Below are positions 15,232 through 64,000 of a DNA stretch of 64,000 nucleotides, piece by piece. Under the pieces are notes generated by a model, which made no database searches, was not told the DNA's origin, and saw only the letters and a list, made by a program, of their open reading frames with translations. How positions within the stretch are numbered: position 1 is the stretch's first letter; every line of letters starts with the position of its first letter. Source of the stretch: Escherichia phage vB-Eco-KMB22; the sequence record OR539217.1, one strand, 5' to 3'. The position numbers were made by a program, and so were the translations under genes.

Positions 15232-16196
15232 TGTATTCTTTAGAGGAATTTAATAATCAAGCAATAAACGCAGATTTCCAACGTAATAATATGTTTAGCT
15301 GCGTTTTTGCGACAACTCCATCAACTAAAAGCTCTTCGTTGATAAGTTCAATTAGCAACTTTTCTTATAATAACTTGGGCCTAAATTCAGATTGGCTAGG
15401 ATTAACTCAAGGTGATATTAATCAGGGAATTACCACGCTAATTACAGCTGGCACACAAAAACTGATAAGAAAATCAGGGGTTAGTAAATATCTTATTGGT
15501 GCCATGAGTCAACGTACAGTTCAAAGTTTATTGGGCTCATTTACAGTTGGTACATATTTAATTGACTTCTTTAACATGGCATATAACTCATCTGGATTGA
15601 TGATATACTCTGTAAAAATGCCAGAGAATAGATTATCCTATGAAACTGATTGGAACTATAATTCTCCTAATATTCGTATAACTGGGAGAGAATTAGACCC
15701 TTTGGTTATTTCATTTAGAATGGATTCAGAAGCTTGTAACTATCGTGCAATGCAAGACTGGGTTAACTCCGTTCAAGACCCAGTAACTGGACTGCGTGCT
15801 TTGCCACAAGATGTCGAGGCAGATATTCAGGTTAATCTTCATTCTCGCAATGGATTACCTCATACTGCGGTGATGTTCACAGGATGCATTCCAATATCAG
15901 TGAGCGCTCCTGAGTTATCATATGATGGAGATAACCAAATAACTACATTTGATGTTACTTTTGCGTACAGAGTGATGCAGGCTGGAGCAGTTGATAGGCA
16001 AGCTGCGCTTGAATGGCTTGAATCTGCTGCTATAAATGGTATTCAAAGCGTTCTCGGAAATAGTGGAGGTGTTACTGGACTATCTAATTCGCTTTCACGA
16101 CTTAGTAGATTAGGAGGGACTGCTGGAAGCATTTCAAACATTAATACTATGACAGGAATTGTTAATTCGCAGAGTAAAATATTAGGAGCAATATAA
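15231..16196 (+). CDS. 54: baseplate-tail tube initiator gp54
   Basis: 321 aa, gp48/gp54 paralog pair, followed by strong hairpin. Confidence 0.9.
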   Translation: MYSLEEFNNQAINADFQRNNMFSCVFATTPSTKSSSLISSISNFSYNNLGLNSDWLGLTQGDINQGITTLITAGTQKLIRKSGVSKYLIGAMSQRTVQSLLGSFTVGTYLIDFFNMAYNSSGLMIYSVKMPENRLSYETDWNYNSPNIRITGRELDPLVISFRMDSEACNYRAMQDWVNSVQDPVTGLRALPQDVEADIQVNLHSRNGLPHTAVMFTGCIPISVSAPELSYDGDNQITTFDVTFAYRVMQAGAVDRQAALEWLESAAINGIQSVLGNSGGVTGLSNSLSRLSRLGGTAGSISNINTMTGIVNSQSKILGAI

Positions 16197-16515: not shown

Positions 16516-16546
16516 TTTGTGTTCCTCATGTTATGTCAGTAAGACT

Positions 16547-16576
16547 ACTATAACACAACACGAGGGACTTGTAAAC
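16547..16576 (-). promoter_or_regulatory. early (sigma70-type) promoter GTTTACA-17-TATAGT
   Basis: -35/-10 spacing and 54-bp near-identity with 32333-32386. Confidence 0.7.
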
Positions 16577-18633
16577 TACATCTTGAACTTTTTAGACATT
16601 CCGTTGATGTTAACCAAAGAAGCCAAGATTTGAGAAACTTCGTTTTCCTCTTCTTTTGATTCTTCTACAAGGAATTGATTAAATCCAGCCATTGGACGAA
16701 CTTCACCAGTTTCCATTAAATGGTCGCCATCATATACTGATTCTTCTAATTGTTCAGAAGGAGGAACGATTGTACCTTCTATTAGATACTTGTTATAAGC
16801 AGTTTCTTTCATAAAGTACGTACTTACTTTATTAATCTTCAGTAAAATTCCACGCGGTAGAATAACTTCAGCTTCTGATGGAAATCCTGATAAATGACCT
16901 GGAACGATAACTTTGATTCGCTCAGCTCCTTTAATTACCATACCCACGCTAGTTTCAGCATCTTCAATGGCATATGTAGAATGACTACCCATATGCATTA
17001 AATCTTCTGCATCAACGGAACCTTCTCCTTCGCCAGAAAATACTGCGCCGGAATCATCTAGAGCCATATAGTTTTTACCATGCTCACCGAAGATATTTGG
17101 TTTAAGTGATGTCGATACGAAGTTCTTGAAATAGAACATTTTGTTTTCAATGTTATGACGCAAAGTTTTAAAGGTAACTTCTTGTCCACGGTAAAGTGTA
17201 GTTCCTGGAGGAAGAACTGATCCTTTGGCAAAGGCAGAATCCAACGTCTCGATGTGCTTAATAGCTCGTTCCATATATTCTTCACGGGTAGAATCTGGTT
17301 TACCCAAAAGGAACGAGTTCATTTCAACATATGAATCTGCACAATAATCTTCAATTACATCAGATTCAGCTTGGGTTAATCCTTTTGGAGTTACTTCGGT
17401 GCTTGCGTATTCATATGCCTGGGCAGCAGATTCATTAATCAATTTATAAATGCCATTCATGACAAATTGAATAATAGCTGTCTTTTCATCTGGCGTAGCT
17501 TTAGAACCTTTAACTAAATCATTAATAATTTTCTTAATAACATCAAAGCTATTAGAAATATTAATGTCAGCAAGATCGCTTAAAATTTTATCAGTTTTAT
17601 AATCAAAGAATTCTTTATTCTTTAAATATTCTTGAGAACCTTGATATGTTATATCGCTCTGCAACTTGATAGATGGATCACGTAAACGTGCATGGGCTAA
17701 TGCAATATGATTTCGGAAGTTTTCTAGTTCATAATCGTTAGATTTAAAACGAGAAGCACTTCTCATACCACCGATAGCTCCTTTGCTAAAGTTTGAACCA
17801 ATCTGGATAACCCCGGAGTTCATCGGACCTTCTGCTTTATATACCGGAACTTTAGATTCAAACTCTTGATATTTCTTGACAGCGAAGCTATCACCCTGGA
17901 GTGAAGCATCAACAGTAGAATATTGAGCTTGTGCTGCTAATCGACGACTAATTTTAGTTTTCTGAATAACAGCTTGATCCGTGCGCTTATCATTTTCTAA
18001 AGCAATAGAAGCAGCAACAGCAACAGCTTTAGGAACAGCATTACCTGTTTTAACGTCTACATAAACATCACCAACCTTTGATTCAACTTTTGTGAATAAC
18101 TCAGTTGAAATAGGAGGTACACCTGGAATGTCTTCTAAATTGGCATTTTTACGGTAAACCATAATATATGCATATTTCTTATCATAGTCCCAGATTTCCT
18201 TTAAGAGAACATATCGACCTGCTCCTTTAGTACGTACTAAACGGTCAGCAATAACTTGCATTTGACGAGCTGCGCCATTTGTTTTACTCTTTAGTACGCG
18301 GAATAGGCATGCGTCGATTTTATACTGTTTCATTGTTTGAAGAGCAGTATCAAAAACAGCATTAATGACGCCAATTGGATTTCCACCCAAGTTTCTAAGC
18401 TTAACCAGCGATAATTTCTCGTTGACACCTATCATTACGATATGCATCATTTTATCGCCCGGCTTAACGTTTTTATTTGTATCACCGCCAGAGGTGTATG
18501 TACAAAATCTAAATCCAGGAAGCACGCTTTCTTCACCGGCTTGAATAGCAAAAATTTGAGGTATTTTATGCTTAGGATTTAAGTTAACAACCGGCGCCGA
18601 AGCGCCGTCAAATAATTCTGTAATAAGTTCCAT
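16576..18633 (-). CDS. Alt-family mono-ADP-ribosyltransferase paralog
   Basis: 685 aa; N-terminal ~235 aa closely parallel the downstream Alt (MELITELFD...); C-terminal region has ART R / STS / EAE motifs (LYRGQ, FVSTSL, EAEVILPRG). Confidence 0.8.
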   Translation of the reverse strand: MELITELFDGASAPVVNLNPKHKIPQIFAIQAGEESVLPGFRFCTYTSGGDTNKNVKPGDKMMHIVMIGVNEKLSLVKLRNLGGNPIGVINAVFDTALQTMKQYKIDACLFRVLKSKTNGAARQMQVIADRLVRTKGAGRYVLLKEIWDYDKKYAYIMVYRKNANLEDIPGVPPISTELFTKVESKVGDVYVDVKTGNAVPKAVAVAASIALENDKRTDQAVIQKTKISRRLAAQAQYSTVDASLQGDSFAVKKYQEFESKVPVYKAEGPMNSGVIQIGSNFSKGAIGGMRSASRFKSNDYELENFRNHIALAHARLRDPSIKLQSDITYQGSQEYLKNKEFFDYKTDKILSDLADINISNSFDVIKKIINDLVKGSKATPDEKTAIIQFVMNGIYKLINESAAQAYEYASTEVTPKGLTQAESDVIEDYCADSYVEMNSFLLGKPDSTREEYMERAIKHIETLDSAFAKGSVLPPGTTLYRGQEVTFKTLRHNIENKMFYFKNFVSTSLKPNIFGEHGKNYMALDDSGAVFSGEGEGSVDAEDLMHMGSHSTYAIEDAETSVGMVIKGAERIKVIVPGHLSGFPSEAEVILPRGILLKINKVSTYFMKETAYNKYLIEGTIVPPSEQLEESVYDGDHLMETGEVRPMAGFNQFLVEESKEEENEVSQILASLVNINGMSKKFKM

Positions 18634-18636
18634 GAT

Positions 18637-20733
18637 TTATCCTTGAACGAACTTGTAAGGCATGTTTGTAATATCTATGCAAGACGCAATAATTCCAAGA
18701 GATGATTCTACTTTCTGTTTAACATTTGATGAAACAAATGATGCAAAGTCAACTCTGTCTTCTATTTCAATATCACCTGTCATTGCAACTACTTCACCGG
18801 TTTCCATTAAATGGTCTCCGTCATAGATTACCGATTCGGTGAGCTCTTCCGTGGTCATAACTTCAGCTTGAATGAGTTTTGTATTATTAGATGTTGTTCC
18901 GTCATTATTAGAAGCATCAGTTATTTTATTAACTTTGACCATCAATCCACGCGGTAGAATAACTTCAGCTTCTGTTGCTATTCCGAGACTTCCTGGATAT
19001 ACAACATTAACTTTATGAGCTCCATCAATTGCCCATCCTATTTGAACTTTAACGTATTCAGGATTTTCTTTATACGCTCTTATTTCGTTTGGATTAATAG
19101 TTATTCCTTCTTCATTTTTATCAACTGTTAATTCATTGCGAGCTTCTGGTTCTAAAAGACCAATACCAGCATGTGTGATTCCAAAACGTCCAAAAATGAT
19201 AGGAGTTAAAGAAGTAGATACAAAATTTCTGAAGTAGAACACTTTATTTTTAACTAACGCTTCATATATAGGAGCAGTCATACTTTGAGCACGATAAACT
19301 GTAATGCCTTCTGGTATACGGTCACCATTTTCAAAAGCTGAATCTAAGTTATTTATAGCAGATTCAATTTCTTTTTCACTCATTACATCATATCGTTCTG
19401 GATTGTAACGACCTAAAAGAAGATTATTGATGTCAGTATATCCTGAACCGCAATATTCTCTAATGCCACGCTTTTGTGATGGAGTATATTTAGAACCATC
19501 GCGGGCAATAGTAATATCAATCATTGGACCAGCACCAATTCCAGAAAAACTGTAAATCATTCGTTTGAGGAATTTAGTTTTTGCTGCGTTCCAGGAATTT
19601 TTAGTCATTTCTTCCCAGACTTCATCTGGCTGCCCTTTACGAGTTTTATTATGTTTATCAAGCCAATTATCTTTATATTCTTCAAAGAGTTGATTAACAG
19701 CTGCTGCGTATTTCTCTAAACATTTTATTGAAGTAGTTGGTTCATTTTTAATCGCATTAAGAATTACATCTTTAATTTTTTCAGAAACTTCATTAACCTC
19801 ACTTTTTGAAAAGAATTTATAGTCATAATGAAGTTCATCTGCGGTTCCTTCGGCAATAATTTTTGCTGCCTTAGTTTTAGAAGCTAATGAATTAATTCCA
19901 AGTTTCATTTCTTCTGCTTCGGGAATTAAAGGAGCGGTAGCAGGTTTATTGAAATTAGCTGCGGTAGATTCATATTTCTGGAATAATTCACTTTCAAATC
20001 TAGAAGATTCCAATGACTGACTTTGTGCAATTGCTCTACGGGAAATTTTAACTTTAACGATTACAGCTTGGTCAGAACGTTTATCATTTTCTTGTGCAAT
20101 AGATGCAGCAATTGCCTCATTTTTAGTTACTTGAGCTCCAGTATCTTTATTGATATAAACATCACCGACCTTCGATTCAACTTTAGTAAAGAGCTCGGTG
20201 CTAATTTCCGGAACTCCTGGAATGTCTTCTAGTGATACATTTTTGCGATGTATAAGAATATATGCATACTTTTTATCGTAATCCCAGAGTTCCTTAAGAA
20301 GGACGTATCTGCCACCTGAACGACTGCGGATAAGTCTATCAGCAATAAGTTGAATTTGACGAGCTTGACCAGCAGTTTTAGACTTAAGAATACGGAGCAT
20401 ACAGGCATCAATTTTATACTGACGCATCGTCTGCATCGCAACAGTAAAAACTGAATTGATGTAATTAATTGGGCTTGGACCGAGACCTTTTAATTTAGCA
20501 ATTGAACCTTTAGCAGTTAATGTAAAAGGAACAATATGCATCATTTTATCGCCCATCTTTAAATCGCGATTAGTATCACCTCCAGATGTATAGGTACATA
20601 AACGAAAGCCTGGTTGTTCAATTGCGTCATCAACACGAACTGAAAAAATTTGCGGTATTTTCTTCTTTGGATTTAAGTTTGTAATCGGAAGAGTAGTATC
20701 TTCGTCAAATAATTCTGTAATAAGTTCCATCAT
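18637..20733 (-). CDS. alt: Alt ADP-ribosyltransferase (head-packaged, injected)
   Basis: 698 aa; MELITE N-terminal propeptide; R-STS-EXE motifs; late promoter TATAAATA upstream at 20754-20761. Confidence 0.85.
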   Translation of the reverse strand: MMELITELFDEDTTLPITNLNPKKKIPQIFSVRVDDAIEQPGFRLCTYTSGGDTNRDLKMGDKMMHIVPFTLTAKGSIAKLKGLGPSPINYINSVFTVAMQTMRQYKIDACMLRILKSKTAGQARQIQLIADRLIRSRSGGRYVLLKELWDYDKKYAYILIHRKNVSLEDIPGVPEISTELFTKVESKVGDVYINKDTGAQVTKNEAIAASIAQENDKRSDQAVIVKVKISRRAIAQSQSLESSRFESELFQKYESTAANFNKPATAPLIPEAEEMKLGINSLASKTKAAKIIAEGTADELHYDYKFFSKSEVNEVSEKIKDVILNAIKNEPTTSIKCLEKYAAAVNQLFEEYKDNWLDKHNKTRKGQPDEVWEEMTKNSWNAAKTKFLKRMIYSFSGIGAGPMIDITIARDGSKYTPSQKRGIREYCGSGYTDINNLLLGRYNPERYDVMSEKEIESAINNLDSAFENGDRIPEGITVYRAQSMTAPIYEALVKNKVFYFRNFVSTSLTPIIFGRFGITHAGIGLLEPEARNELTVDKNEEGITINPNEIRAYKENPEYVKVQIGWAIDGAHKVNVVYPGSLGIATEAEVILPRGLMVKVNKITDASNNDGTTSNNTKLIQAEVMTTEELTESVIYDGDHLMETGEVVAMTGDIEIEDRVDFASFVSSNVKQKVESSLGIIASCIDITNMPYKFVQG

Positions 20734-24695: not shown

Positions 24696-24736
24696 AATAT
24701 TTTCCTCAGTAAGGGGGCCAAAGCCCCTCATTTATT

Positions 24737-25102
24737 TTAAATATCAAATTCGTTAAGAACTACATCAAAGATTGCTTCAAGATGCTCAGGTTTAGCTCTG
24801 TTACTCAGAATATGACGAATCCAAGTTTTAACCAGAAGCTTGCGATTAACGCCATTCCAGCAAGGATGAGTCCCTAAATCGCGTTGACGAAAATCATCAT
24901 CCAATGCGATTTTAAAAGAAGAACCTTCTTTCGTGATTGAAACCGTGATGCCATTTTCAAATCGCATATAAACGTAGTTAGGAGTCATATACTGCTCAAT
25001 TTCGCATACTGATCCATTTTGATGTTTCCAAAGGCAGATAGTATCAATAGAACCTGCAATACCGTTAGAAACATATTTACGTTCAAAGTTGATGTAATTC
25101 AT
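24737..25102 (-). CDS. hypothetical protein
   Basis: 121-aa ORF. Confidence 0.55.
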   Translation of the reverse strand: MNYINFERKYVSNGIAGSIDTICLWKHQNGSVCEIEQYMTPNYVYMRFENGITVSITKEGSSFKIALDDDFRQRDLGTHPCWNGVNRKLLVKTWIRHILSNRAKPEHLEAIFDVVLNEFDI

Positions 25103-32328: not shown

Positions 32329-32356
32329 AAAGTCCTCATGTTATGTCAGTAAGACT

Positions 32357-32386
32357 ACTGTAACACAACACGAGGGACTTGTAAAC
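32357..32386 (-). promoter_or_regulatory. early promoter for alc (GTTTACA-17-TACAGT)
   Basis: copy of the 16547-16576 cassette with one substitution in -10. Confidence 0.65.
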
Positions 32387-40482: not shown

Positions 40483-40725
40483 TCAAATAGACTTTTTCAC
40501 AATTTTCCAATCAGCTTTAAACTGCTCGACGTCAGAATGGTAAATCCAGAATCCTGCGCTTTCTCCGTCTTCATAAAGAGGACATCTATCACATTCATCT
40601 TCCCATCCCATGTCACGTAAAAGATGTTCAGCTTTTTCAACAAGTTCAGAATCTTTACCGATGATATTAAAATACCATTTACCTCTAACTTCTGAATCTT
40701 TGATGCTTTGGCGTTGTAATCTCAT
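40483..40725 (-). CDS. hypothetical protein (frd.x)
   Basis: 80-aa ORF. Confidence 0.5.
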   Translation of the reverse strand: MRLQRQSIKDSEVRGKWYFNIIGKDSELVEKAEHLLRDMGWEDECDRCPLYEDGESAGFWIYHSDVEQFKADWKIVKKSI

Positions 40726-40782
40726 TTTATTCTCCTCAGTGGTTAATAGGGTAATAGTATCACACTACTACCCTGTTGTAAA

Positions 40783-41163
40783 CTACTTTTTGAAAGTTTT
40801 TCGCAAAAGTTCAATGATTTCGTCTACATTGTTTTCATCTACAATGCAGTGAATTTTTGTTACGCCAGAAACCGGGTCTTTGACTTCATCTTTTTCAGAA
40901 GTCGGTTCTTTATACTCACGAAAACAATGAAATTCGTCTTCGCAAATTTCTAAAAGTCTATCTTTGAGGTAAAAATGCTTTCCATTTGCGCATTCAATGT
41001 GTTTTACTGCTTTATATCCGTTAGCGACGGAAACTTCTTTAACTTCAAACCATCCGCCATTATCTCGAATGGCTTTAACTATTGATGAATTAGAACGTGG
41101 GCTATAATTAATAAATGTATCAATAAGTCTTGGAACAAGTTCATACTTTTTACCAGTATACAT
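40783..41163 (-). CDS. hypothetical protein
   Basis: 126-aa ORF. Confidence 0.5.
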   Translation of the reverse strand: MYTGKKYELVPRLIDTFINYSPRSNSSIVKAIRDNGGWFEVKEVSVANGYKAVKHIECANGKHFYLKDRLLEICEDEFHCFREYKEPTSEKDEVKDPVSGVTKIHCIVDENNVDEIIELLRKTFKK

Positions 41164-41207: not shown

Positions 41208-41459
41208 TTATTGTTCAATCAGTCCCATGTAAAATTCTGCGTCTTCAGAATCCATGCCATCACAATATTCATTAGCCATAAAGCGGGTGAGGTCTTCAAG
41301 AGGACCTTCAATGACAATAGAAAAATTGCAATAATTGGGATCATCGTGAATACTTGTGATGCTAAGTTCAGGATAACGATTACGAATAATTTCTTCGATA
41401 TATTCAAAATCAACGATGTCAATATCAACTTTAGCCATATTATTTTCCTCTTTAATCAT
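41208..41459 (-). CDS. hypothetical acidic protein
   Basis: 83-aa ORF; early-type promoter 41476-41510. Confidence 0.5.
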
Positions 41460-41475
41460 CAGCAGTATTGCTGAT

Positions 41476-41510
41476 AGTTGTATAGTACCATGGAAGAACA
41501 GGGATGTAAA
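41476..41510 (-). promoter_or_regulatory. early-type promoter (ATTTACA-17-TACTAT)
   Basis: shares leader motif with 58453 and 62150 cassettes. Confidence 0.5.
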
Positions 41511-41520
41511 TAGTTTTGTG

Positions 41521-41566
41521 AAAAAAAAAATTTTTTAAAATAAAAAAGGGGACCCTAGAGGTCCCC
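41521..41566 (-). terminator. hairpin plus long U-run after gene 32
   Basis: 7-bp GC stem followed on - strand by >20 T/A-rich run. Confidence 0.8.
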
Positions 41567-56720: not shown

Positions 56721-57000
56721 ATTGAATCACCTTCAGTTGACGTTTTAATTCTTTTATCATTTCTTCGTTCATCGCAATATAAAGATCGCGTAAAGCAGGT
56801 TTTAGCATTCCATTTACTGGAGAACTAAATGGACATACATAATCTTTTCCTACAAGCTTTTTGGCAAATTCCATATCACAAAATTTAAATGCCGGCTCAT
56901 TCGCATAAATTCCCCAATTAGTTGACATCATTTTATTGGCATATTCCAGTGCCTGGATTTGATTCATAATTCCATCGATTTGAAACTTTTTAATATTCAT
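56704..57000 (-). CDS. hypothetical protein (arn.x)
   Basis: 98-aa ORF. Confidence 0.5.
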   Translation of the reverse strand: MNIKKFQIDGIMNQIQALEYANKMMSTNWGIYANEPAFKFCDMEFAKKLVGKDYVCPFSSPVNGMLKPALRDLYIAMNEEMIKELKRQLKVIQFGQGN

Positions 57001-57461
57001 TAGTAAAGGTCCTCAGAGTAAAGTTCTTTTTCACTACCACCACGTTCAATACGTACTTGTCCAGCGTAAGTTGCAATAATCATTGCTTCTTCACGTGTCC
57101 AATAATTACTGTATTGGTCAATAAACCCTTGGTCATCATCACAAACTTGTTGAGTAACTAATTGAGGTTTAACTACATCTAAAACTTCGGCCATATCTTT
57201 AGAATAATGACGAGCACCTGGAATAATAAGAGTTCGTCCATCTTTTAATTTAAAACGGTTGGCTGCACAGACAATTCGTCGTTGATACTTTTGGTTTTCA
57301 TCCCAGTACGCAGTCTGCCAACAGATTTCAGGAACTTCTTTCAGAATATCTTCTTCGGTACATTTATAACCATGCGCTTTAAATTTTTCAACAAGACTTT
57401 CTGGAGTTTCACGAGATAAAGGAACATTCAGCATTTTTAAACGATTAATAAATGGGTTCAT
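57000..57461 (-). CDS. hypothetical protein (arn.x)
   Basis: 153-aa ORF. Confidence 0.55.
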
Positions 57462-57787
57462 TTAAACCATCCTTTAATACGTTGCCACAAAGTTTTCTGC
57501 TGAGCTCTGTTAACACCAATTGAACGAATAACCGGTTGAGATTCCTGGAATTCTTTATAATCAGCAAGGTAAATTTCGTAAGCTGCATCCGTAAATGAAC
57601 TTATCGCTGCCATAAAATTATTACGAATACCTACTGGAGCATCTTTACTTTCACGAATAATCATGTATTTACCAGTCTTAATCTTTACGATAGTTCCAAG
57701 ATAAGCTCCATGATACCAGATGTCCCAACCCTCTTGTGTAGGTTCTGCACAACGACGAAGTTCATTAACAATTTCTAACTTGTTCAT
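57458..57787 (-). CDS. hypothetical protein (arn.x)
   Basis: 109-aa ORF. Confidence 0.5.
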
Positions 57788-57797
57788 TATTTATTCC

Positions 57798-58433
57798 TCA
57801 CAGTTCAGATGCTACAGTGATTACTGCTTCAATGTTTTCTGCTGAGCGTTTAATGTCAAGATACACATTACCGTTTTTAGCGATTTTACATGACATTCCG
57901 ATATCAGTAAATTTCTGAATATGATGTTCCATCATTTTGTATCCAAAAATTCGCATATTTCCATTGTTGTTAATTTCAAAATTGCGAATTCCATGAGTAC
58001 GTTTTTCTAAAATGGCAAGATAATTACTACGATAAGTTTCAACCTTTTTAAGAACAAATCCATTTTCATCTAGCAGTTTTAACATGAGGTCTTTATCTTC
58101 TTCCATATCAGAAGTAATCTCACGAGCTTTACGAGTTGCTCGTTTTTTCAGAAGTTCTGGAGCATTTTCCTGTGCATATAAAGTTGCTGCATTTGAAATA
58201 ATATCTTGTGCTTCACCCGTGATGATTAATCCATCACCTGATTTCTCTACCAGGCCTTTTTTAATTAATACCCCAATATTACTATTAACTACTGCGTTAC
58301 CTAAATCTGGATGCACCTCACGAACTTCTGCAGCTGTAATGAAATCTTTCTTAGCAATGGTAATTAAAATCGCAGCGGTTTTTTCATTCAGAACATCGTT
58401 AGAAGCTTTGATGATGTAAGTTACTTTAGACAT
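57798..58433 (-). CDS. motA: MotA middle-transcription activator
   Basis: 211 aa, matches recalled MotA; early promoter 58474-58503. Confidence 0.9.
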   Translation of the reverse strand: MSKVTYIIKASNDVLNEKTAAILITIAKKDFITAAEVREVHPDLGNAVVNSNIGVLIKKGLVEKSGDGLIITGEAQDIISNAATLYAQENAPELLKKRATRKAREITSDMEEDKDLMLKLLDENGFVLKKVETYRSNYLAILEKRTHGIRNFEINNNGNMRIFGYKMMEHHIQKFTDIGMSCKIAKNGNVYLDIKRSAENIEAVITVASEL

Positions 58434-58473
58434 TTTCTAATCTCCGTAATTCTGTATCAGTAGTTGATAGTTG

Positions 58474-58503
58474 TATAGTACCACAGTATGCTTTGGTTGT
58501 AAA
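58474..58503 (-). promoter_or_regulatory. early promoter for motA (TTTACA-17-TACTAT)
   Basis: motif; 31-bp leader identical to 62150-62180. Confidence 0.7.
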
Positions 58504-58520
58504 CCGTTTTGTGAAAAAAT

Positions 58521-58556
58521 TTTTGAAATAAAAAAGGGAGAGCCTCGGCTCTCCCT
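58521..58556 (-). terminator. hairpin plus U-run after gene 52 region, before motA promoter
   Basis: gggagagcc-tc-ggctctccc with A-run on + strand. Confidence 0.7.
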
Positions 58557-58560
58557 AAAA

Positions 58561-58765
58561 TTACTGCATGACTGTGATAACTGTCATGATAACACGTTGA
58601 ATGCCGAACGCAAGAAGACCTCCTGCTACGGCTGGAACAACACCTAAACCCGCCAGTAAAATGCTAAAGAAGACCTCCTGCTACGGCTGGAACAACACCT
58701 AAACCCGCCAGTAAAATGCTACCGGATACTAATGCAGCGCTTGTAATACCTATGAATGGACTCAT
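58561..58765 (-). pseudogene. small hydrophobic protein ORF truncated by 55-bp tandem duplication
   Basis: Hand translation: reads MSPFIGITSAALVSGSILLAGLGVVPAVAGGLL then stop at 58664; removing one repeat copy restores a 49-aa ORF ending at 58561. Confidence 0.6.
58612..58721. repeat. perfect 55-bp tandem direct duplication (2 copies)
   Basis: 58612-58666 identical to 58667-58721 base for base. Confidence 0.95.
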
Positions 58766-60090
58766 TTGATTTCCTCTAAATCTTTGGTGTATTCTGTAAC
58801 TACATCAGTAGTTTTCCAATATTCGTTTTCTTCTTTTTTAGCTTTAGCTTCTTCAGCAAGTTTCTTTGCTTCATCAGAAGTCATATGAAAAATATTCATA
58901 CCAACTAGTTTATCAACATAAGAAGAATACATCTCAATTTTAGAAAGTTCTTCGGTCAGTTCTTTACGAGTTTTACCCTGTACAACAATTTCACCTGAAA
59001 TTACTTTCTTAATGAAATGCGCCTTGGCAAAGGCTAAACGAAAAGCTGATTCAGTTTCTTTGATTTTGTTATCAATTCGTTTTTGGACATAAGTTTTACG
59101 AACTTCAACAAAGTCTTTAATTAAATCGACTACGTTATCGTAAACTTGTAGTTTTCCTTTCTCATTAATAACCGTAATATTCTGAGAACGACGCTCAATC
59201 AACCCGAAGTCTTTCATAATTTTTGCATGGCGTTCTTCTTCATTATCGCTCAAAGAATATTCTTTACGGAATTTAACTTTAAAGCCAAAACCATGCTCAC
59301 CACAAGCATCATCCCATGTAATGAAGCCTTTATCTTCAAGTGGGTCTAAGATTTTACTCACATAAGTTTCACGATCATACTTATACGGAATCTCAGTGAT
59401 ATGCATTTGAGTTCGTGAAGTAAACTTATATGTTCCACGAATTTCATATTGCCCATCAATTTCAACGACTTCACCACGAAATTCTGGGAATTCTACCTTC
59501 GGTTTAGTTACTTTCTTTCCTTGAAGAGCTTGCAGTACAGCTTTCTTGACAGAAGAAACACTATGAGGAAGAATGTAAGTTGCATAACCAGTTGCAATAC
59601 CGGAAACGCCATTAAGAAGAACAGTAGGAATAATAGGTAAATAGAAAGCAGGCGGAATGTGTTCTTTATCTTGATGTACCGGAGCATATTCAGTATCTTT
59701 ATATACGTTATAGAAATTTTTACTTACACGAGCAAAAATATAACGACTTGCTGCTGCTTTTTGGACGGTACGAGAACCAAAGTTTCCTTGACCATCTAAC
59801 AGAGGAAAATTATTATTCCAAGTGTTAGCCATCAAAGCACCTGCATCTTGTGCAGAGTTTTCACCATGATGATATCCAAGGTCAGCTACACCACCTGCAA
59901 TAGAAGCAAGTTTGTGAAACTTATCTTTATTTCCTCGTGCCAAATCAAGAGCTCGAGCAATAACAAATCGTTGGACTGGCTTAAATCCGTCAATCATATT
60001 TGGGATAGCACGATTTTCAACCGTGTACATAGCATAAGCCAATGCTTCATTATCAATGATACTTTTTAAATCGCGATTATTCAGTTGCAT
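58762..60090 (-). CDS. 52: DNA topoisomerase II medium subunit gp52
   Basis: 442 aa, position and length. Confidence 0.9.
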   Translation of the reverse strand: MQLNNRDLKSIIDNEALAYAMYTVENRAIPNMIDGFKPVQRFVIARALDLARGNKDKFHKLASIAGGVADLGYHHGENSAQDAGALMANTWNNNFPLLDGQGNFGSRTVQKAAASRYIFARVSKNFYNVYKDTEYAPVHQDKEHIPPAFYLPIIPTVLLNGVSGIATGYATYILPHSVSSVKKAVLQALQGKKVTKPKVEFPEFRGEVVEIDGQYEIRGTYKFTSRTQMHITEIPYKYDRETYVSKILDPLEDKGFITWDDACGEHGFGFKVKFRKEYSLSDNEEERHAKIMKDFGLIERRSQNITVINEKGKLQVYDNVVDLIKDFVEVRKTYVQKRIDNKIKETESAFRLAFAKAHFIKKVISGEIVVQGKTRKELTEELSKIEMYSSYVDKLVGMNIFHMTSDEAKKLAEEAKAKKEENEYWKTTDVVTEYTKDLEEIK

Positions 60091-60094
60091 AAAT

Positions 60095-60235
60095 TTACCA
60101 TACTAGTGAATGTAGTGCCATAATAACATCAGAAATGAAAAGCACGACTTGAATTAATCCGAACATTATTCCGTAATATAACGCTACCAATAAAGTAGCA
60201 AGGGCTAGTGAATAGCCCAAGATTTTCTTAATCAT
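60095..60235 (-). CDS. small membrane protein (52.1 position)
   Basis: 46-aa hydrophobic ORF translated by hand. Confidence 0.5.
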   Translation of the reverse strand: MIKKILGYSLALATLLVALYYGIMFGLIQVVLFISDVIMALHSLVW

Positions 60236-60386
60236 TAGTAGATAACAACACAAATGTTAAATATGCACACATACCCTGGGCTAAAGCTTGTGAAAACACA
60301 CTGCTGGCATCAATACAGATAGTTAAAACACATGCTACTATCCAACAAATAAATGAAATAACTCCTAATAATTTTGCGATATTCAT
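60228..60386 (-). CDS. ac: Ac small membrane protein (acridine sensitivity)
   Basis: 52-aa hydrophobic ORF between stp and 52.1; GAGGAA SD. Confidence 0.6.
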   Translation of the reverse strand: MNIAKLLGVISFICWIVACVLTICIDASSVFSQALAQGMCAYLTFVLLSTND

Positions 60387-60393
60387 ATTTTCC

Positions 60394-60474
60394 TCACTGG
60401 CGTCCGAAGACGCCTTTAGTTTTAAGATTGTTACGATAAAACTGCATCACATGTTCGTTGTGGAAATTACTCAT
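60394..60474 (-). CDS. stp: Stp peptide (activator of host PrrC anticodon nuclease)
   Basis: 26-aa [29 protein letters not shown], matches recalled Stp; start overlaps ndd stop. Confidence 0.8.
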
Positions 60475-60917
60475 TAATATGCCTGCAAAACGAATTTAAA
60501 GTTATCAGCCAACATACGGTTCATTTCTTCAAGTGTTTGATACTCAGAATGATGATTACGAGTAAACGCCAAAGCTAACTGACCTTTACCAAATCCTGTC
60601 GTCAGAGGTTTCATCTTAGAAGCAGGCAGATAAAATACTGTGTATGGAACATTGTTATTTACAATAGTACGCGCAAGTTGAGACCGGCGTTGACGAATAT
60701 GACTTAGAACTGCGCTGAATCCTTGCTTAGAACGCTGATTACCCACATAAAATCGTGCGGATACGCATGAACCATCGAATTCATTTACTAAAAAGTAAAA
60801 TCCAGGTTTAGATAAAATATCTTTATGCGGAGTTCCCAAAAACCACTTACCACCCTTGATTGTACCAATAACAGTAGCGCCTGCGTTGTTCAGATCAGTA
60901 ACAGTCATGTATTTCAT
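60474..60917 (-). CDS. ndd: nucleoid disruption protein Ndd
   Basis: 147 aa, matches recalled Ndd. Confidence 0.85.
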
Positions 60918-60976
60918 TTTAATTTCCTCTAATTATTTTCTACTCCAAGGCCGCATGAATACACGCGGCCATTAAA

Positions 60977-61192
60977 TTAATCGTCGCAGTCGACGCTCAA
61001 TTCCCAGAATTCTTCTACGGTGTAAGTTTCAGTATCATTTTCAATACAGAAACGTTCATTACTATTATTTGCTAAAGTAGCATTAACTGTCGGTTTCTCG
61101 CTAGTGCTCTTAAGAGGTGAAATACGAATTAACTGATCACCATTATCTAAACAGAAAATTTCACCAACTTTTACATCTTTAAAACTTTTCAT
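60977..61192 (-). CDS. hypothetical protein (ndd.x)
   Basis: 71-aa ORF. Confidence 0.5.
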   Translation of the reverse strand: MKSFKDVKVGEIFCLDNGDQLIRISPLKSTSEKPTVNATLANNSNERFCIENDTETYTVEEFWELSVDCDD

Positions 61193-61200
61193 AATTCACC

Positions 61201-61311
61201 TCAAGGAGTATAAAATCCAAATGCAGTTGTTGACCATCCCATCCAATATGGGAAATTTGCGCCAATGTAAAACATAAGAATATAAAACCAAATGTTTAGT
61301 AAATTCATCAT
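61201..61311 (-). CDS. tiny hydrophobic peptide
   Basis: 36-codon ORF, ATGA-coupled to upstream ORF. Confidence 0.4.
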   Translation of the reverse strand: MMNLLNIWFYILMFYIGANFPYWMGWSTTAFGFYTP

Positions 61312-61526
61312 TTTACACCATTCCAAATTGTTTCAACTACGGATTTTAAACCATTTTGATGAATATCCATTCCGACTACCGCCATCAAATAGATTCCAAC
61401 TACAACTGAACCTAAGGCAAAAATCAGCATGAAAATGAATAAAGCCGGAAAAATATTATCGAAAAACCATTCAATAAATGTAAAAGCACTGCGTTTACGC
61501 TTCATATTTTCCTCACATAAATCCAA
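61308..61526 (-). CDS. small membrane protein (ndd.x)
   Basis: 72 aa with TM segment. Confidence 0.5.
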   Translation of the reverse strand: MDLCEENMKRKRSAFTFIEWFFDNIFPALFIFMLIFALGSVVVGIYLMAVVGMDIHQNGLKSVVETIWNGVK

Positions 61527-61626
61527 AGTAAGCGTTTAATACATCAATCATTAAAACGATTGGGAATATACTCAAAACTATTAATATTATAACTACATTC
61601 CATATAGCTTTAATAATCTTTTTCAT
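61513..61626 (-). CDS. tiny membrane peptide
   Basis: 37 aa from ATG with GGAGGAA SD; early promoter 61651-61685 lies inside the longer ORF-track call. Confidence 0.5.
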   Translation of the reverse strand: MKKIIKAIWNVVIILIVLSIFPIVLMIDVLNAYFGFM

Positions 61627-61650
61627 TTTCTGTTCCTCCGTAGTTGATAG

Positions 61651-61685
61651 AGTAATAATACCACGGAAGAACAGTCTTGTAAACA
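61651..61685 (-). promoter_or_regulatory. early promoter (GTTTACA-17-TATTAT)
   Basis: motif. Confidence 0.6.
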
Positions 61686-61869
61686 ACTTTTTTAAAAATA
61701 TTCGTAATAAATGTGAATACCAACTACTACCGCTGAAACCTGTGCAACCCACCACGCGCAAGCAATAAGTACAGAATCCAAAATTTTCATAATAACCTCA
61801 TTACAAAAGTAAATGTTAAACAAATTACTGGAATACTAATTAACCAAATAAAACACCACCATAATGAAC

Positions 61870-62145
61870 TCATAGCTCAATCTCAGCGATTTTCATTTCA
61901 TTACTATTAATAGCCGCTTTAAGACTATCTGAAAGAATTACATTCCAGTGGTCATTCATATGACCATTAATTAAGCGTGTAATTTCTTCGGGAGTTGAAA
62001 AATAAGGCTGATCAGACTCCCAATGCGATAATCCTAAGCGAGTATAAATCATGCCTTCATCATCGCTAGAATATTCAACTGACACAAACTCATCAGTTAT
62101 TTTATGTTTAGCGTAATAAAATTTAAATTTCATTTTATTCTCCAA
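61870..62145 (-). CDS. hypothetical early protein (ndd.x)
   Basis: 91-aa ORF; early promoter 62166-62200. Confidence 0.55.
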   Translation of the reverse strand: MENKMKFKFYYAKHKITDEFVSVEYSSDDEGMIYTRLGLSHWESDQPYFSTPEEITRLINGHMNDHWNVILSDSLKAAINSNEMKIAEIEL

Positions 62146-62165
62146 ATCCGTATCAGTAGTTGATA

Positions 62166-62200
62166 GTTGTATAGTACCACGGTCCTTGTGGTATGTAAAC
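62166..62200 (-). promoter_or_regulatory. early promoter (GTTTACA-17-TACTAT)
   Basis: motif; leader identical to motA promoter leader. Confidence 0.7.
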
Positions 62201-62217
62201 TGTTTTGTGAAATTTTT

Positions 62218-62775
62218 TTAAATGGAAAGATACCATCCGTTGTAGTTGCTTTTTCTTACAACCTTACGAAGGTCTTCTCTGTCACCGATGAACTTCGGAG
62301 TGTACTGGATGACACCTGGATGAATTTCTTTAGTGTTGAATATAATTATACAGTCAGCGACTTGATGATTTAGAATGGGCCCTAAATTTATTCCAGAACC
62401 ATATGGATACTCTCCGCTGCATCCCGTTGTTACCGAAATCCAACGCGAGTCAGTTTGATGTGTTTTGACTTCTACACGAAGCCCGCAATATTTTGGATGC
62501 GCTAAAACATCCCATGCATACGTGTACGGATCATCGACATTTTCTTGGCCTTTATTGACATATCCGCTTAGCCAATCTGCCACAAAAAACTCTGCGTACA
62601 CAGCGATACGGCATCTTTCGATAACTTCTGCTTTATCCTGGTTCGGGTTTTGTTTTAAAGAGTATCTTGCTGTATCAGCAATTTTGACCTTCATTTCACT
62701 AGTCAAGTCACTGTTCGATAGGGTAAATGTCGGAATCTGAAATAGTCTCTGTAAACCCGGATTCGTTTTCTGCAT
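62218..62775 (-). CDS. denB: endonuclease IV
   Basis: 185 aa, matches recalled DenB. Confidence 0.85.
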   Translation of the reverse strand: MQKTNPGLQRLFQIPTFTLSNSDLTSEMKVKIADTARYSLKQNPNQDKAEVIERCRIAVYAEFFVADWLSGYVNKGQENVDDPYTYAWDVLAHPKYCGLRVEVKTHQTDSRWISVTTGCSGEYPYGSGINLGPILNHQVADCIIIFNTKEIHPGVIQYTPKFIGDREDLRKVVRKSNYNGWYLSI

Positions 62776-62807
62776 TTAAACTTTCCTTTATGTCGGAATC
62801 ATAATTT

Positions 62808-62836
62808 CTCTTAAAACAAAAGGGCCGAAGCCCTTA
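62808..62836 (-). terminator. CUUCGG hairpin plus U-run upstream of denB
   Basis: gggccgaagccc with flanking A/T runs. Confidence 0.6.
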
Positions 62837-62838
62837 TT

Positions 62839-63033
62839 TTATTTGAATTGTGCGATTCTTTTCTCTAGACACTCAGCATAAGATTTCATTGAGATGAACT
62901 GCGAAAGTAGCAGTTCTTGCTCAACTGCGTTAACTGTTAGAAACTTTGCGCTTTCTAAAAATTTACTCAGTGCATTAATTTTGAGCATTAATTGATCGTA
63001 TTCTTCTTTTACTCGTGCTTGATAACCTAACAT
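62839..63033 (-). CDS. hypothetical coiled-coil protein
   Basis: 64-aa ORF. Confidence 0.5.
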   Translation of the reverse strand: MLGYQARVKEEYDQLMLKINALSKFLESAKFLTVNAVEQELLLSQFISMKSYAECLEKRIAQFK

Positions 63034-63061
63034 AATTTTCCTTAGTTAAGGGCCGAAGCCC

Positions 63062-64000
63062 TTATTTAAATTGTTCAGTAACGTCTTCAACTACTTCGTA
63101 TTGGCAGGTACGCATTTTAGCATCGTTGTAATCAATCGGAATTGATACTACATCACGCGGATGTACTTTAACTTTTACAACTCGGCTAGTTGAACTGCCA
63201 AAGTGACGAATATAAGATTTAGAACACACATGCAGACCACGAGAACAAGTTTGTGTATCATCGTCATTCACACGAGTACGCGGCATTTTAACTACTTTAC
63301 CAGGACTGTTATCAAAGGTGTTTGAGTGACAGTCAAAGTAGTTGTCACGAACTACTTTCCAAGCATAGAAGTAACCATCTTCTGTAATTTCAATATCGTT
63401 TGCTACCAAGAAATCAAAGAGTCGAGATACCGCTTTCTGGCTTGGGTTTTCCAGCAGATTTTCCAAGAACGGAAAATAAAATTCAAAGTTTTCACCTTTT
63501 TCCATCGAATCGAGAATACGATCAACTAAACCAGACCGTAATTCGATATTTTGATAGAACAAGCTTCCGCCTTCAATTCGAACATCGCCGGAAATATATT
63601 TTTCAACAGCGCGACGAACATTAATTTTTTGTGCCGCTTCTTCCAACTTATCTGCTACAAGCAGATTAAGAATTTCCTGGAAGTTTGAATGAGTATTAGG
63701 AGTTGCGTTATAAGTTACACCGTCAACAGTAATTGAAATGAATTTTTTAGATGCATTCCAAATAATGTCAGATTTAGCAACTGGAGCAATAACTGCATCG
63801 CTATTAACTTTAATTGTAATATCACCGCTAATAGTAACTTTAGAGCGTTTAGCTTCTTCAGCATTTTTCAAAACACGACGAATTGTGTCAACCGATACAC
63901 CTTGCCAATCAGCCAATTCCTGTTGGGTGTAATTACCACTTGAATACAGTTTAACAATTTCAGCTTGTTCGTTTTTGGTCAGGCATTTAATATTGTACAT
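63062..64000 (-). CDS. rIIB: rIIB
   Basis: 312 aa; start codon at last base of window. Confidence 0.9.
   Translation of the reverse strand: MYNIKCLTKNEQAEIVKLYSSGNYTQQELADWQGVSVDTIRRVLKNAEEAKRSKVTISGDITIKVNSDAVIAPVAKSDIIWNASKKFISITVDGVTYNATPNTHSNFQEILNLLVADKLEEAAQKINVRRAVEKYISGDVRIEGGSLFYQNIELRSGLVDRILDSMEKGENFEFYFPFLENLLENPSQKAVSRLFDFLVANDIEITEDGYFYAWKVVRDNYFDCHSNTFDNSPGKVVKMPRTRVNDDDTQTCSRGLHVCSKSYIRHFGSSTSRVVKVKVHPRDVVSIPIDYNDAKMRTCQYEVVEDVTEQFK

Follow-up and report, generated by a model that had tools for sequence, protein, structure and literature searches.

The elements of T4 early promoters are said to be described in Liebig & Rueger 1989, Wilkens & Rueger 1996 and Miller et al. 2003, and Kammerer et al. 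1986 reportedly recognised a 'downstream sequence region' in the early promoters of T5. Conservation in very strong sigma-70 phage promoters extends over the first ~20 transcribed bases, which exert their effect at the level of DNA and initiation. 5′-terminal stem-loops can stabilise mRNA, e.g. in the ompA 5′ UTR. The T4 early promoters combine an UP element, a −35 GTTTAC, a TGn and a −10 box (PMC2988021), and the published early-promoter logos, in the part of the source available, end near the start site (PMC1524935). Promoter/terminator cassettes of the PeSL type are sites of exchange: in RB49 and phi1, mapped crossovers fall in the interval from the −10 box to the Shine-Dalgarno (SD)/ATG (PMC2839356), and the ndd.4/ndd.5 region is an example of PeSL exchange between T4 and PST (PMC4122927).

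We analysed 64,000 nt (the window) of Escherichia phage vB-Eco-KMB22 (OR539217.1), a Tequatrovirus, in which a repeated block lies upstream of early genes. The feature is already known: these are classical T4 early promoters, ordinary for T4-like phages. All of the defining elements are present, the genes served are T4 early genes (motA, ndd.6, ndd.4, frd.3 and frd.1), and the very same sequences are in the T4 reference genome. Nothing essential differs from the T4 promoters; what is added here is a TACTAT −10 box tied to an ATCAAC start region. The concept matches that of the T5 downstream sequence region, but the sequences differ and the likeness may be drawn as an analogy only.

The block is a 31-bp sequence, GTGGTACTATACAACTATCAACTACTGATAC, identical on the minus strand at 58454–58484, in the motA early promoter, and at 62150–62180, in an early promoter of the T4 'ndd.6' type that lies just downstream of denB. 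The two copies are direct repeats separated by 3.7 kb. The original prediction had reported this identity with the first copy one base off (58453–58483); the exact 31-bp match is confirmed at the corrected position. None of 100 shuffles gave such a match and none is expected by chance. A repeat search extended the similarity to 76 nt (58448–58523 versus 62144–62219, 80%) and returned a third copy at 41455–41530 (61%). Alignment likewise bore out the two related versions that had been proposed, which are promoters at 41487, with TGGTACTATACAACTATCA in common with the block, and at 61660, with GTGGTA.TAT...CTATCAACTAC in common. A fifth relative at 40759, TACTATTACCCTATTAACCAC, was absent from the earlier list. 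All five copies precede minus-strand early genes. Single-mismatch matches to CTATCAACTAC at 15987, 49532 and 58282 lie in coding sequence and were taken as chance; the one at 15987 was inspected and has no promoter context.

Each copy reads as a T4-type early promoter, as had been suggested. The −35 is GTTTACA at 58498–58504, 62194–62200, 61678–61684 and 40777–40783, and ATTTACA at 41505–41511; all five promoters have a 17-bp spacer and a TGG or TGA followed by TACTAT or TATTAT. The 30 bases upstream are 70–90% A+T, including a recurrent TTTCACAAAAC, and form an UP-like tract (−40 to −60). A GGAG or GAGG and then an ATG follow at all copies, 25–40 nt or less from +1. The promoters are predicted to be transcribed by the unmodified host sigma-70 RNA polymerase, straight after infection. 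With +1 positions assigned from the −10 box by a 7-nt spacing rule (PMC2613000), the block consists of TGn, the −10 box TACTAT, six bases and then ~15 transcribed bases. The block includes the −10, as the original prediction stated, but would not cover the first ~25 transcribed nucleotides: in the motA copy, with the −10 at 58480–58475 and the predicted start at 58468, the transcribed part comes to only about 15 bases of the 31. Beyond about +9, the copies diverge by indels or pass directly into the SD. Two other readings of the same bases were set aside. The −10-like hexamer AACTAT at −4 to +2, considered as a sigma-dependent pause or second promoter, is without a TGn or −35 and is atypically positioned, making this speculation. 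The IHF consensus is WATCAANNNNTTR, to which TATCAACTACTGA has one mismatch, but the match is lost in relatives such as TATCAAAACAAAA.

The five loci, all on the minus strand, differ in their surroundings. At motA (57798–58433, 211 aa; ATG 58431–58433), a 9-bp G+C-rich terminator hairpin (58535–58556) lies directly upstream of the promoter in a PeSL-type layout, followed by the −35 (58498–58504), the −10 (58475–58480), a predicted +1 at the A at 58468, and a GGAG SD at 58442–58445 that forms part of a RegB-type site, GGAGATTAGAA. The ndd.6-type promoter (−35 62194–62200, −10 62171–62176, predicted +1 62164) leads to GGAGAATAAAA at 62133–62143, the last A of which begins the ATG of an 87-aa ORF of unknown function (61870–62133, phrog_2390) just downstream of denB. 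The ndd.4-type promoter (61635–61684; GTTTACA 61678–61684, −10 TATTAT 61655–61660), which would drive an ndd.4-like ORF of 37 aa (61513–61626), has ATCAACTAC at 61640–61648 and then GGAGG at 61635–61639, with no further leader. The frd.3-type promoter (41458–41511; ATTTACA 41505–41511, −10 TACTAT 41482–41487) precedes a frd.3-like ORF (41208–41438) and has the gene 32 terminator hairpin (41548–41566) directly upstream, again in a PeSL-type layout. The fifth family member is a frd.1-type promoter (40754–40783), with GTTTACA, 17 nt, TACTAT and then TACCCTATTAACCACTGAGGAG, ahead of a frd.1-like ORF (40483–40725).

Some of the leaders also carry RegB/S1-type sites. The RegB/S1 consensus is GGAGRAYARAA with cleavage at GG*AG (Durand et al. 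2006, as quoted in PMC3014915). GGAGAATAAAA, in the distal leader of the ndd.6-type and frd.1-type promoters, matches the full consensus (11/11 in the ndd.6-type leader), and GGAGATTAGAA at motA matches 10/11. Neither the ndd.4-type nor the frd.3 leader fits the consensus, and that of frd.3 is without a GGAG. The RegB motif falls beyond the 31-bp block, and the block is not explained by it.

In T4 itself, four early promoters (imm.1, e.8, motA and ndd.6) contain the identical 31-mer, with near-copies at nrdC.10, nrdC.8, ndd.4 and frd.3. More widely, the 31-mer was found at 1053 places in 506 phage records, all of them T4-type (Tequatrovirus-like) enterobacterial phages by organism name. A TACTAT −10 is present in 15 of the 35 T4 early promoters; all 15 have A+1 and T+2 and, by position count, 13 have C+3, the start being mostly ATCAAC(TAC). 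There is nearly no information past +1 in the other 20. Amongst clades with 52% MotA identity, the motA promoters have CTATCAA at the same offset and the rest of the leader is unrelated; in the clade with 67–69% identity, part have ACATCAA and the remainder TCATACC, the rest of the leader again being unrelated. Even motA genes encoding 99–100% identical MotA can carry an alternative promoter/leader allele, unrelated except for CTATCAA at the same offset (~138 records, versus ~347 with the T4 type). Promoters of the form TACTAT-N6-ATCAAC with the SD immediately after are numerous in JS98-like contigs. In IMG/VR scans with a 17-mer and a 14-base pattern, most matches were chance ones in unrelated contigs and only T4-like contigs were used. 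A literature search for the block sequence itself returned unrelated papers only.

The T4 copies also differ in how far they share their flanks: imm.1 and e.8 share −25 to +15, imm.1 and ndd.6 share −15 to +28, and e.8 and motA share −15 to +19. This mosaic implies crossovers inside the block. A nrdC.10-type cassette, including its spacer, precedes an unrelated 59-aa ORF in L114. In the window, by comparison with T4, codons 1–79 of the 87-aa ORF (61897–62133) form an in-frame insertion of 237 nt, placed exactly after the ATGAAA of the ndd.6-type cassette and with ATGAAA at both ends. The mosaic flanks and the insertion fit recombination between promoter cassettes. The likeness to PeSLs (PMC2839356, PMC4122927) extends to the order of parts (terminator hairpin, A/T-rich tract, −35, −10, SD and ATG amongst small ORFs) and to the indels and gene swaps that adjoin the cassettes, and the published crossover interval, from the −10 box to the SD/ATG, is exactly the shared block here. 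The difference from full PeSLs is that an upstream hairpin is present only at the motA (9 bp) and frd.3 copies; the ndd.6- and ndd.4-type copies, without an upstream stem-loop, are 'half' PeSLs. Separately, a study of T4 evolution (PMC9391042) describes 6–10 bp microhomologies in recombination, though not these cassettes.

The block is best read as the downstream portion of an early promoter cassette of the T4 type, and probably owes its identity to two forces. It would comprise the extended −10 (TGn + TACTAT), the six bases before the start and some 15 bases of transcribed sequence, and would belong to a paralogous, multi-copy early promoter class, TACTAT/ATCAAC; each promoter would yield a short unstructured 5′ UTR ending in a GGAG SD that doubles as a RegB/S1 cleavage site. 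One force would be purifying selection for promoter function, acting between about −16 and about +6/+9, a range that presumably takes in the choice of start site and, these being very strong promoters, the initially transcribed sequence. The other would be shared descent with repeated recombinational exchange, as in PeSL promoter/terminator cassettes, which would keep sub-families identical and place cassettes ahead of one gene or another. Identity of this extent is expected from PeSL promoter-cassette shuffling. Up to about +7/+9, the conserved bases are those of the TACTAT-class T4 early promoter consensus, which roughly amounts to the refutation named in the original prediction, an extended early-promoter consensus accounting for all of the conservation; the remaining 6–8 bases are confined to a sub-family, the sharing of which looks like that of paralogous, recombining copies. 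Bases +10 to +15 (TGATAC) are a hallmark of the sub-family with no demonstrated function of their own, and their identity in four T4 copies despite differing spacers could reflect an additional constraint.

The original prediction had instead read the block as a shared leader RNA element. Conservation does run past the sigma-70 core into the transcribed region, as it stated, but the view that this marks such an element is not supported. A 5′-terminal stem-loop or protein-binding leader RNA that stabilises the mRNA or controls translation seems very improbable to us, although a hairpin AUCA-ACUAC-UGAU would start exactly at the predicted +1, as a stabiliser like that of ompA might, and the isolated 15-mer folds better than its own shuffles. 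Only ~15 nucleotides of the block would be transcribed. The motA/ndd.6 hairpin has four A-U-rich pairs worth just −0.6 kcal/mol and, unlike the ompA-type stabilisers, is not conserved; over their full length, the leaders are no more stably folded than shuffled sequences (z = −0.39 for motA, +0.08 for the ndd.6-type and +0.79 for the ndd.4-type). The frd.3 leader of the window has a perfect 7-bp hairpin in the same position (AUCAGCA-AUAC-UGCUGAU, 41458–41475; −7.6 kcal/mol, 0/200 shuffles as good) and is the only leader to reach z = −1.47; in the T4 ortholog this hairpin is degraded, lost by non-compensatory changes (z = +0.07). Pairing is likewise destroyed in T4 nrdC.10, ATCAACTGATAC, which leaves a 2-nt loop, and in L117, ATCAACTAATAC, whilst ndd.4 and nrdC.8 pass directly to GGAGG, removing the hairpin. 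Amongst relatives we found no compensatory changes that preserve a leader structure, only variants that delete or break the pairing, and the leader is not retained among motA orthologs and alleles. An Rfam scan of 57000–63000 at E ≤ 1 gave no credible match; the sole match, to REN-SRE at 58080–58116 inside the motA coding region, scored 18.9 bits (E = 0.42), below the gathering score of 41.

The same bases might act as DNA rather than RNA, −6 to +15 being an operator for a phage or host factor involved in Alt-dependent stimulation or early shut-off. We regard this as very improbable. Overlap with +1 is typical of operators, TACTAT is strictly linked to ATCAAC in the 15 T4 promoters, and reviews (PMC2988021, PMC3014915) state that both the mechanism of early promoter shut-off, 2–4 min after infection, and the determinants of Alt-responsiveness are still unexplained. 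Set against this, the block has no dyad symmetry or known binding motif that we could find, conservation across clades is limited to −2 to +6, a short stretch that falls on the RNA polymerase start-site contacts, and more than half of the early promoters are without the motif, yet shut-off is described as class-wide (PMC2988021, PMC3014915). A very recent duplication, or a chance or low-complexity match with no shared function, has nothing in its favour beyond the short length of the block and practically no probability: the 0/100 shuffles and the same 31-mer at the same loci in T4 and hundreds of genomes refute chance, and −35/−10 spacers that differ wholly between copies show that the entire promoter was not simply duplicated in the recent past. 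Finally, the TACTAT/ATCAAC promoters (15 of 35 in T4) being a functionally distinct regulatory class, with a −6 to +9 module beyond the core elements, is a tentative idea that we hold to be unlikely; if true, the module may set promoter escape, the response to Alt ADP-ribosylation, or sensitivity to early shut-off.

The 31-mer, or the pattern TACTAT-N6-ATCAAC, is a reliable annotation marker for one class of early promoter in T4-like genomes, and also marks sites of gene-cassette exchange.

The 31-bp sequence GTGGTACTATACAACTATCAACTACTGATAC is present twice on the minus strand of the window, at 58454–58484 and 62150–62180, and had no match in 100 dinucleotide-preserving shuffles. This exact match bears out the identical repeat reported in the original prediction, although the first copy had been placed one base off. 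In a repeat search, the similarity of the two copies reached 76 nt at 80% identity and a weaker third copy appeared at 41455–41530. Alignment of the promoter regions confirmed the two related versions that had also been proposed, at 41487 and 61660, and revealed a fifth relative at 40759. The repeat is a promoter plus its start region.

The window is from a Tequatrovirus, with 99.4% identity to phage vB_EcoM_Ozark across 57000–63000, and its early genes are on the minus strand. The five promoters, all in this orientation and named here after T4 early genes, drive motA (-10 at 58480; gene at 57798–58433), an 87-aa ORF just downstream of denB in the T4 'ndd.6' position (-10 at 62176; 61870–62133), a 37-aa ndd.4-like ORF (-10 at 61660; 61513–61626), a frd.3-like ORF directly after the gene 32 terminator (-10 at 41487; 41208–41438) and a frd.1-like ORF (-10 at 40759; 40483–40725). 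All have GTTTACA (ATTTACA for frd.3), a 17-bp spacer, TGn, TACTAT or TATTAT, and an A/T-rich tract upstream, a layout that agrees with the T4 early-promoter architecture (PMC2988021).

The block itself consists of GTGG, TACTAT, ACAACT and ATCAACTACTGATAC. Since the preferred start is 7 nt past the -10 box (PMC2613000), +1 would be the A of ATCAAC, at 58468 and 62164, so that about 15 bases of the block would be transcribed instead of the ~25 originally proposed. Past the block the two leaders are unlike (AGAATTAC versus GGATTT); both close with a GGAG Shine-Dalgarno (SD) sequence that fits the consensus of the RegB/S1 cleavage site, GGAGRAYARAA (PMC3014915).

A scan of the early regions of the T4 reference genome recovered 35 early promoters, which were aligned on the -10 box. 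Above-background information covered the UP region, -35, TGn and -10 and continued to ~+7 (consensus CCTATCAACT). Among the 15 promoters with a TACTAT-type -10, A+1 and T+2 are invariant (15/15), C+3 and C-2 are each found in 13/15, and ATCAAC(TAC) is present in most. The remaining 20 (TATAAT, TATTAT, TATAGT) have a weak C at -3, T at -1 and a purine at +1, with no conservation past +1 in this alignment. Given this split, as far as ~+7/+9 the block is a promoter-class consensus; its last 6–8 bases (…TGATAC) are limited to one sub-family. The T4 early consensus and the early ribosome-binding-site consensus are reportedly defined in Liebig & Rueger 1989 and Miller et al. 2003. Published logos, as far as they are described in PMC1524935, stop close to the start site.

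In T4, the 31-mer is present without a change at motA and ndd.6 and, from the same scan, at imm.1 and e.8. Near-copies are found at nrdC.10 (a 3-nt deletion, ATCAACTGATAC), at nrdC.8 and ndd.4 (ATCAACTAC/T, with GGAGG immediately after) and at frd.3. A search of a public phage collection located the 31-mer 1053 times in 506 records, all of them T4-type (Tequatrovirus-like) phages of enterobacteria, each genome having 1–4 copies; 'promoter' is its annotation in a few of these. In JS98-like contigs, TACTAT-N6-ATCAAC promoters with an SD within a few bases are numerous; this set was fetched by motif and is therefore evidence of spread, not of independent conservation. Neither this phage nor these genes are special in having the block, which forms a multi-copy class among T4-like phages.

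The conserved block had been read as a possible leader RNA element. A hairpin can be drawn from +1 (AUCA-ACUAC-UGAU), with an energy of only -0.6 kcal/mol, and its pairing is lost in T4 nrdC.10, ndd.4 and nrdC.8 and in the imm.1-type variant of phage contig L117 (ATCAACTAATAC). Whole leaders folded no better than shuffles (z = -0.39, +0.08, +0.79 and +1.21). The frd.3 leader of the window (41458–41475, minus strand) has a perfect 7-bp hairpin from the inferred +1 (-7.6 kcal/mol); in the T4 ortholog, two non-compensatory changes (a C-A mismatch and a G-U pair) abolish it (z +0.07). An in-frame upstream ATG lies at 41457–41459, in the 3' arm of the frd.3 hairpin. Rfam gave no credible match across 57–63 kb, the one sub-threshold match at E <= 1 (E = 0.42) being inside the motA coding region. 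The leaders have no significant RNA structure; with weak folding, lost pairing and no credible Rfam match, the leader-element reading is unsupported.

We also gathered motA loci by protein homology, rather than by motif, and read their upstream regions. Two unrelated promoter/leader alleles precede MotA proteins that are 99–100% identical: that of the window (58434–58556) and that of the IMG/VR Tequatrovirus contigs L003 and L007 (1380–1500; …TACTATAGACCTATCAAATAAATGAACTGAAACGGAG), which is without the motA.1 terminator context. In the public collection, ~138 records have the full-length alternative allele, as against ~347 with the T4 type. In the clade with 67–69% MotA identity, loci L011 and L012 retain ACATCAA, equally distant from the -10 box, and L008–L010 have TCATACC; the 51–52% clade keeps CTATCAA. 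The remaining leader is unrelated in the alternative allele and in both clades, so this leader is dispensable for motA and the start-site motif alone is durable. Sequence past ~+9 is not conserved. Separately, motA.1, between gene 52 and the motA promoter, contains a perfect 55-bp tandem duplication (58612–58721, minus strand) that is missing from T4 and AR1. As 55 is not a multiple of 3 the frame is shifted, leaving a 33-aa ORF at 58664–58765; the duplication may be genuine variation or an artefact of assembly.

Compared in pairs, the four perfect copies in T4 differ in the extent of identity: -25 to +15 for imm.1/e.8, with a shared spacer; -15 to +28 for imm.1/ndd.6, with a shared distal leader and first codons (ATGAAAATCGCT); -15 to +19 for e.8/motA, with a shared distal leader; and -16 to +15, the block alone, for motA/ndd.6. 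Left and right flank types occur in every combination, which requires crossovers inside the block. T4 nrdC.10 and frd.3 have the entire upstream half in common, including the spacer, with different leaders, and a near-identical nrdC.10-type cassette, its spacer included, stands before an unrelated 59-aa ORF in a phage with an only 68% identical MotA. Compared with T4, the window has a 237-nt in-frame insertion (61897–62133, minus strand) exactly after the cassette's ATGAAA, with ATGAAA at both junctions; it yields the 87-aa ORF (phrog_2390, function not assigned) fused to the 8-codon mini-ORF MKIAEIEL, the upstream neighbour of ndd.6 in T4. The copies are thus mosaic and tied to gene exchange. 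This agrees with the promoter-early stem-loop (PeSL) model, in which composite terminator/early-promoter/SD cassettes recombine with one another, with crossovers mapped to the interval from the -10 box to the SD or ATG (PMC2839356); the ndd.4–ndd.5 region of T4/PST illustrates it (PMC4122927). At the motA and frd.3 copies the promoter is preceded by a terminator hairpin, as in a full PeSL; both ndd copies lack it.

Elsewhere, denB.1 is flanked by repeated G+C-rich hairpins (AAGGGCCGAAGCCCTT; 62820–62845 and 63048–63073), terminator-like on both strands, with a related copy at 24713–24738. A second minus-strand early-promoter pair (16523–16576 and 32333–32386; 54 nt at 98%) matches across -35, spacer, -10 (TATAGT), leader and SD. 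Its T4 counterparts are the promoters at 123069 and 136312, of which the second lies upstream of alc; the pair resembles a cassette duplication of more recent date, because even the spacer is common to both. Tandem full-length paralogs of 685 and 698 aa lie at 16576–18633 and 18637–20733 (minus strand), their DNA 72–82% identical in blocks 2094 nt apart. The two are matches to PF03496, an ADP-ribosyltransferase family, and this phage therefore has two alt-like genes, versus the one alt and the remnants alt.-1 and alt.-2 of T4.

Conservation of -6 to +9 may be due to selection acting on initiation or promoter escape where promoters are very strong, with sub-families presumably homogenised by recombination. 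It seems improbable that the TACTAT/ATCAAC module gives these promoters a regulatory property of their own, such as a response to Alt (the ADP-ribosyltransferase that modifies RNA polymerase) or early shut-off, both described as unexplained (PMC2988021, PMC3014915). The observation is real but ordinary: the element is of a known kind, the T4 early promoters and PeSL-type cassettes.
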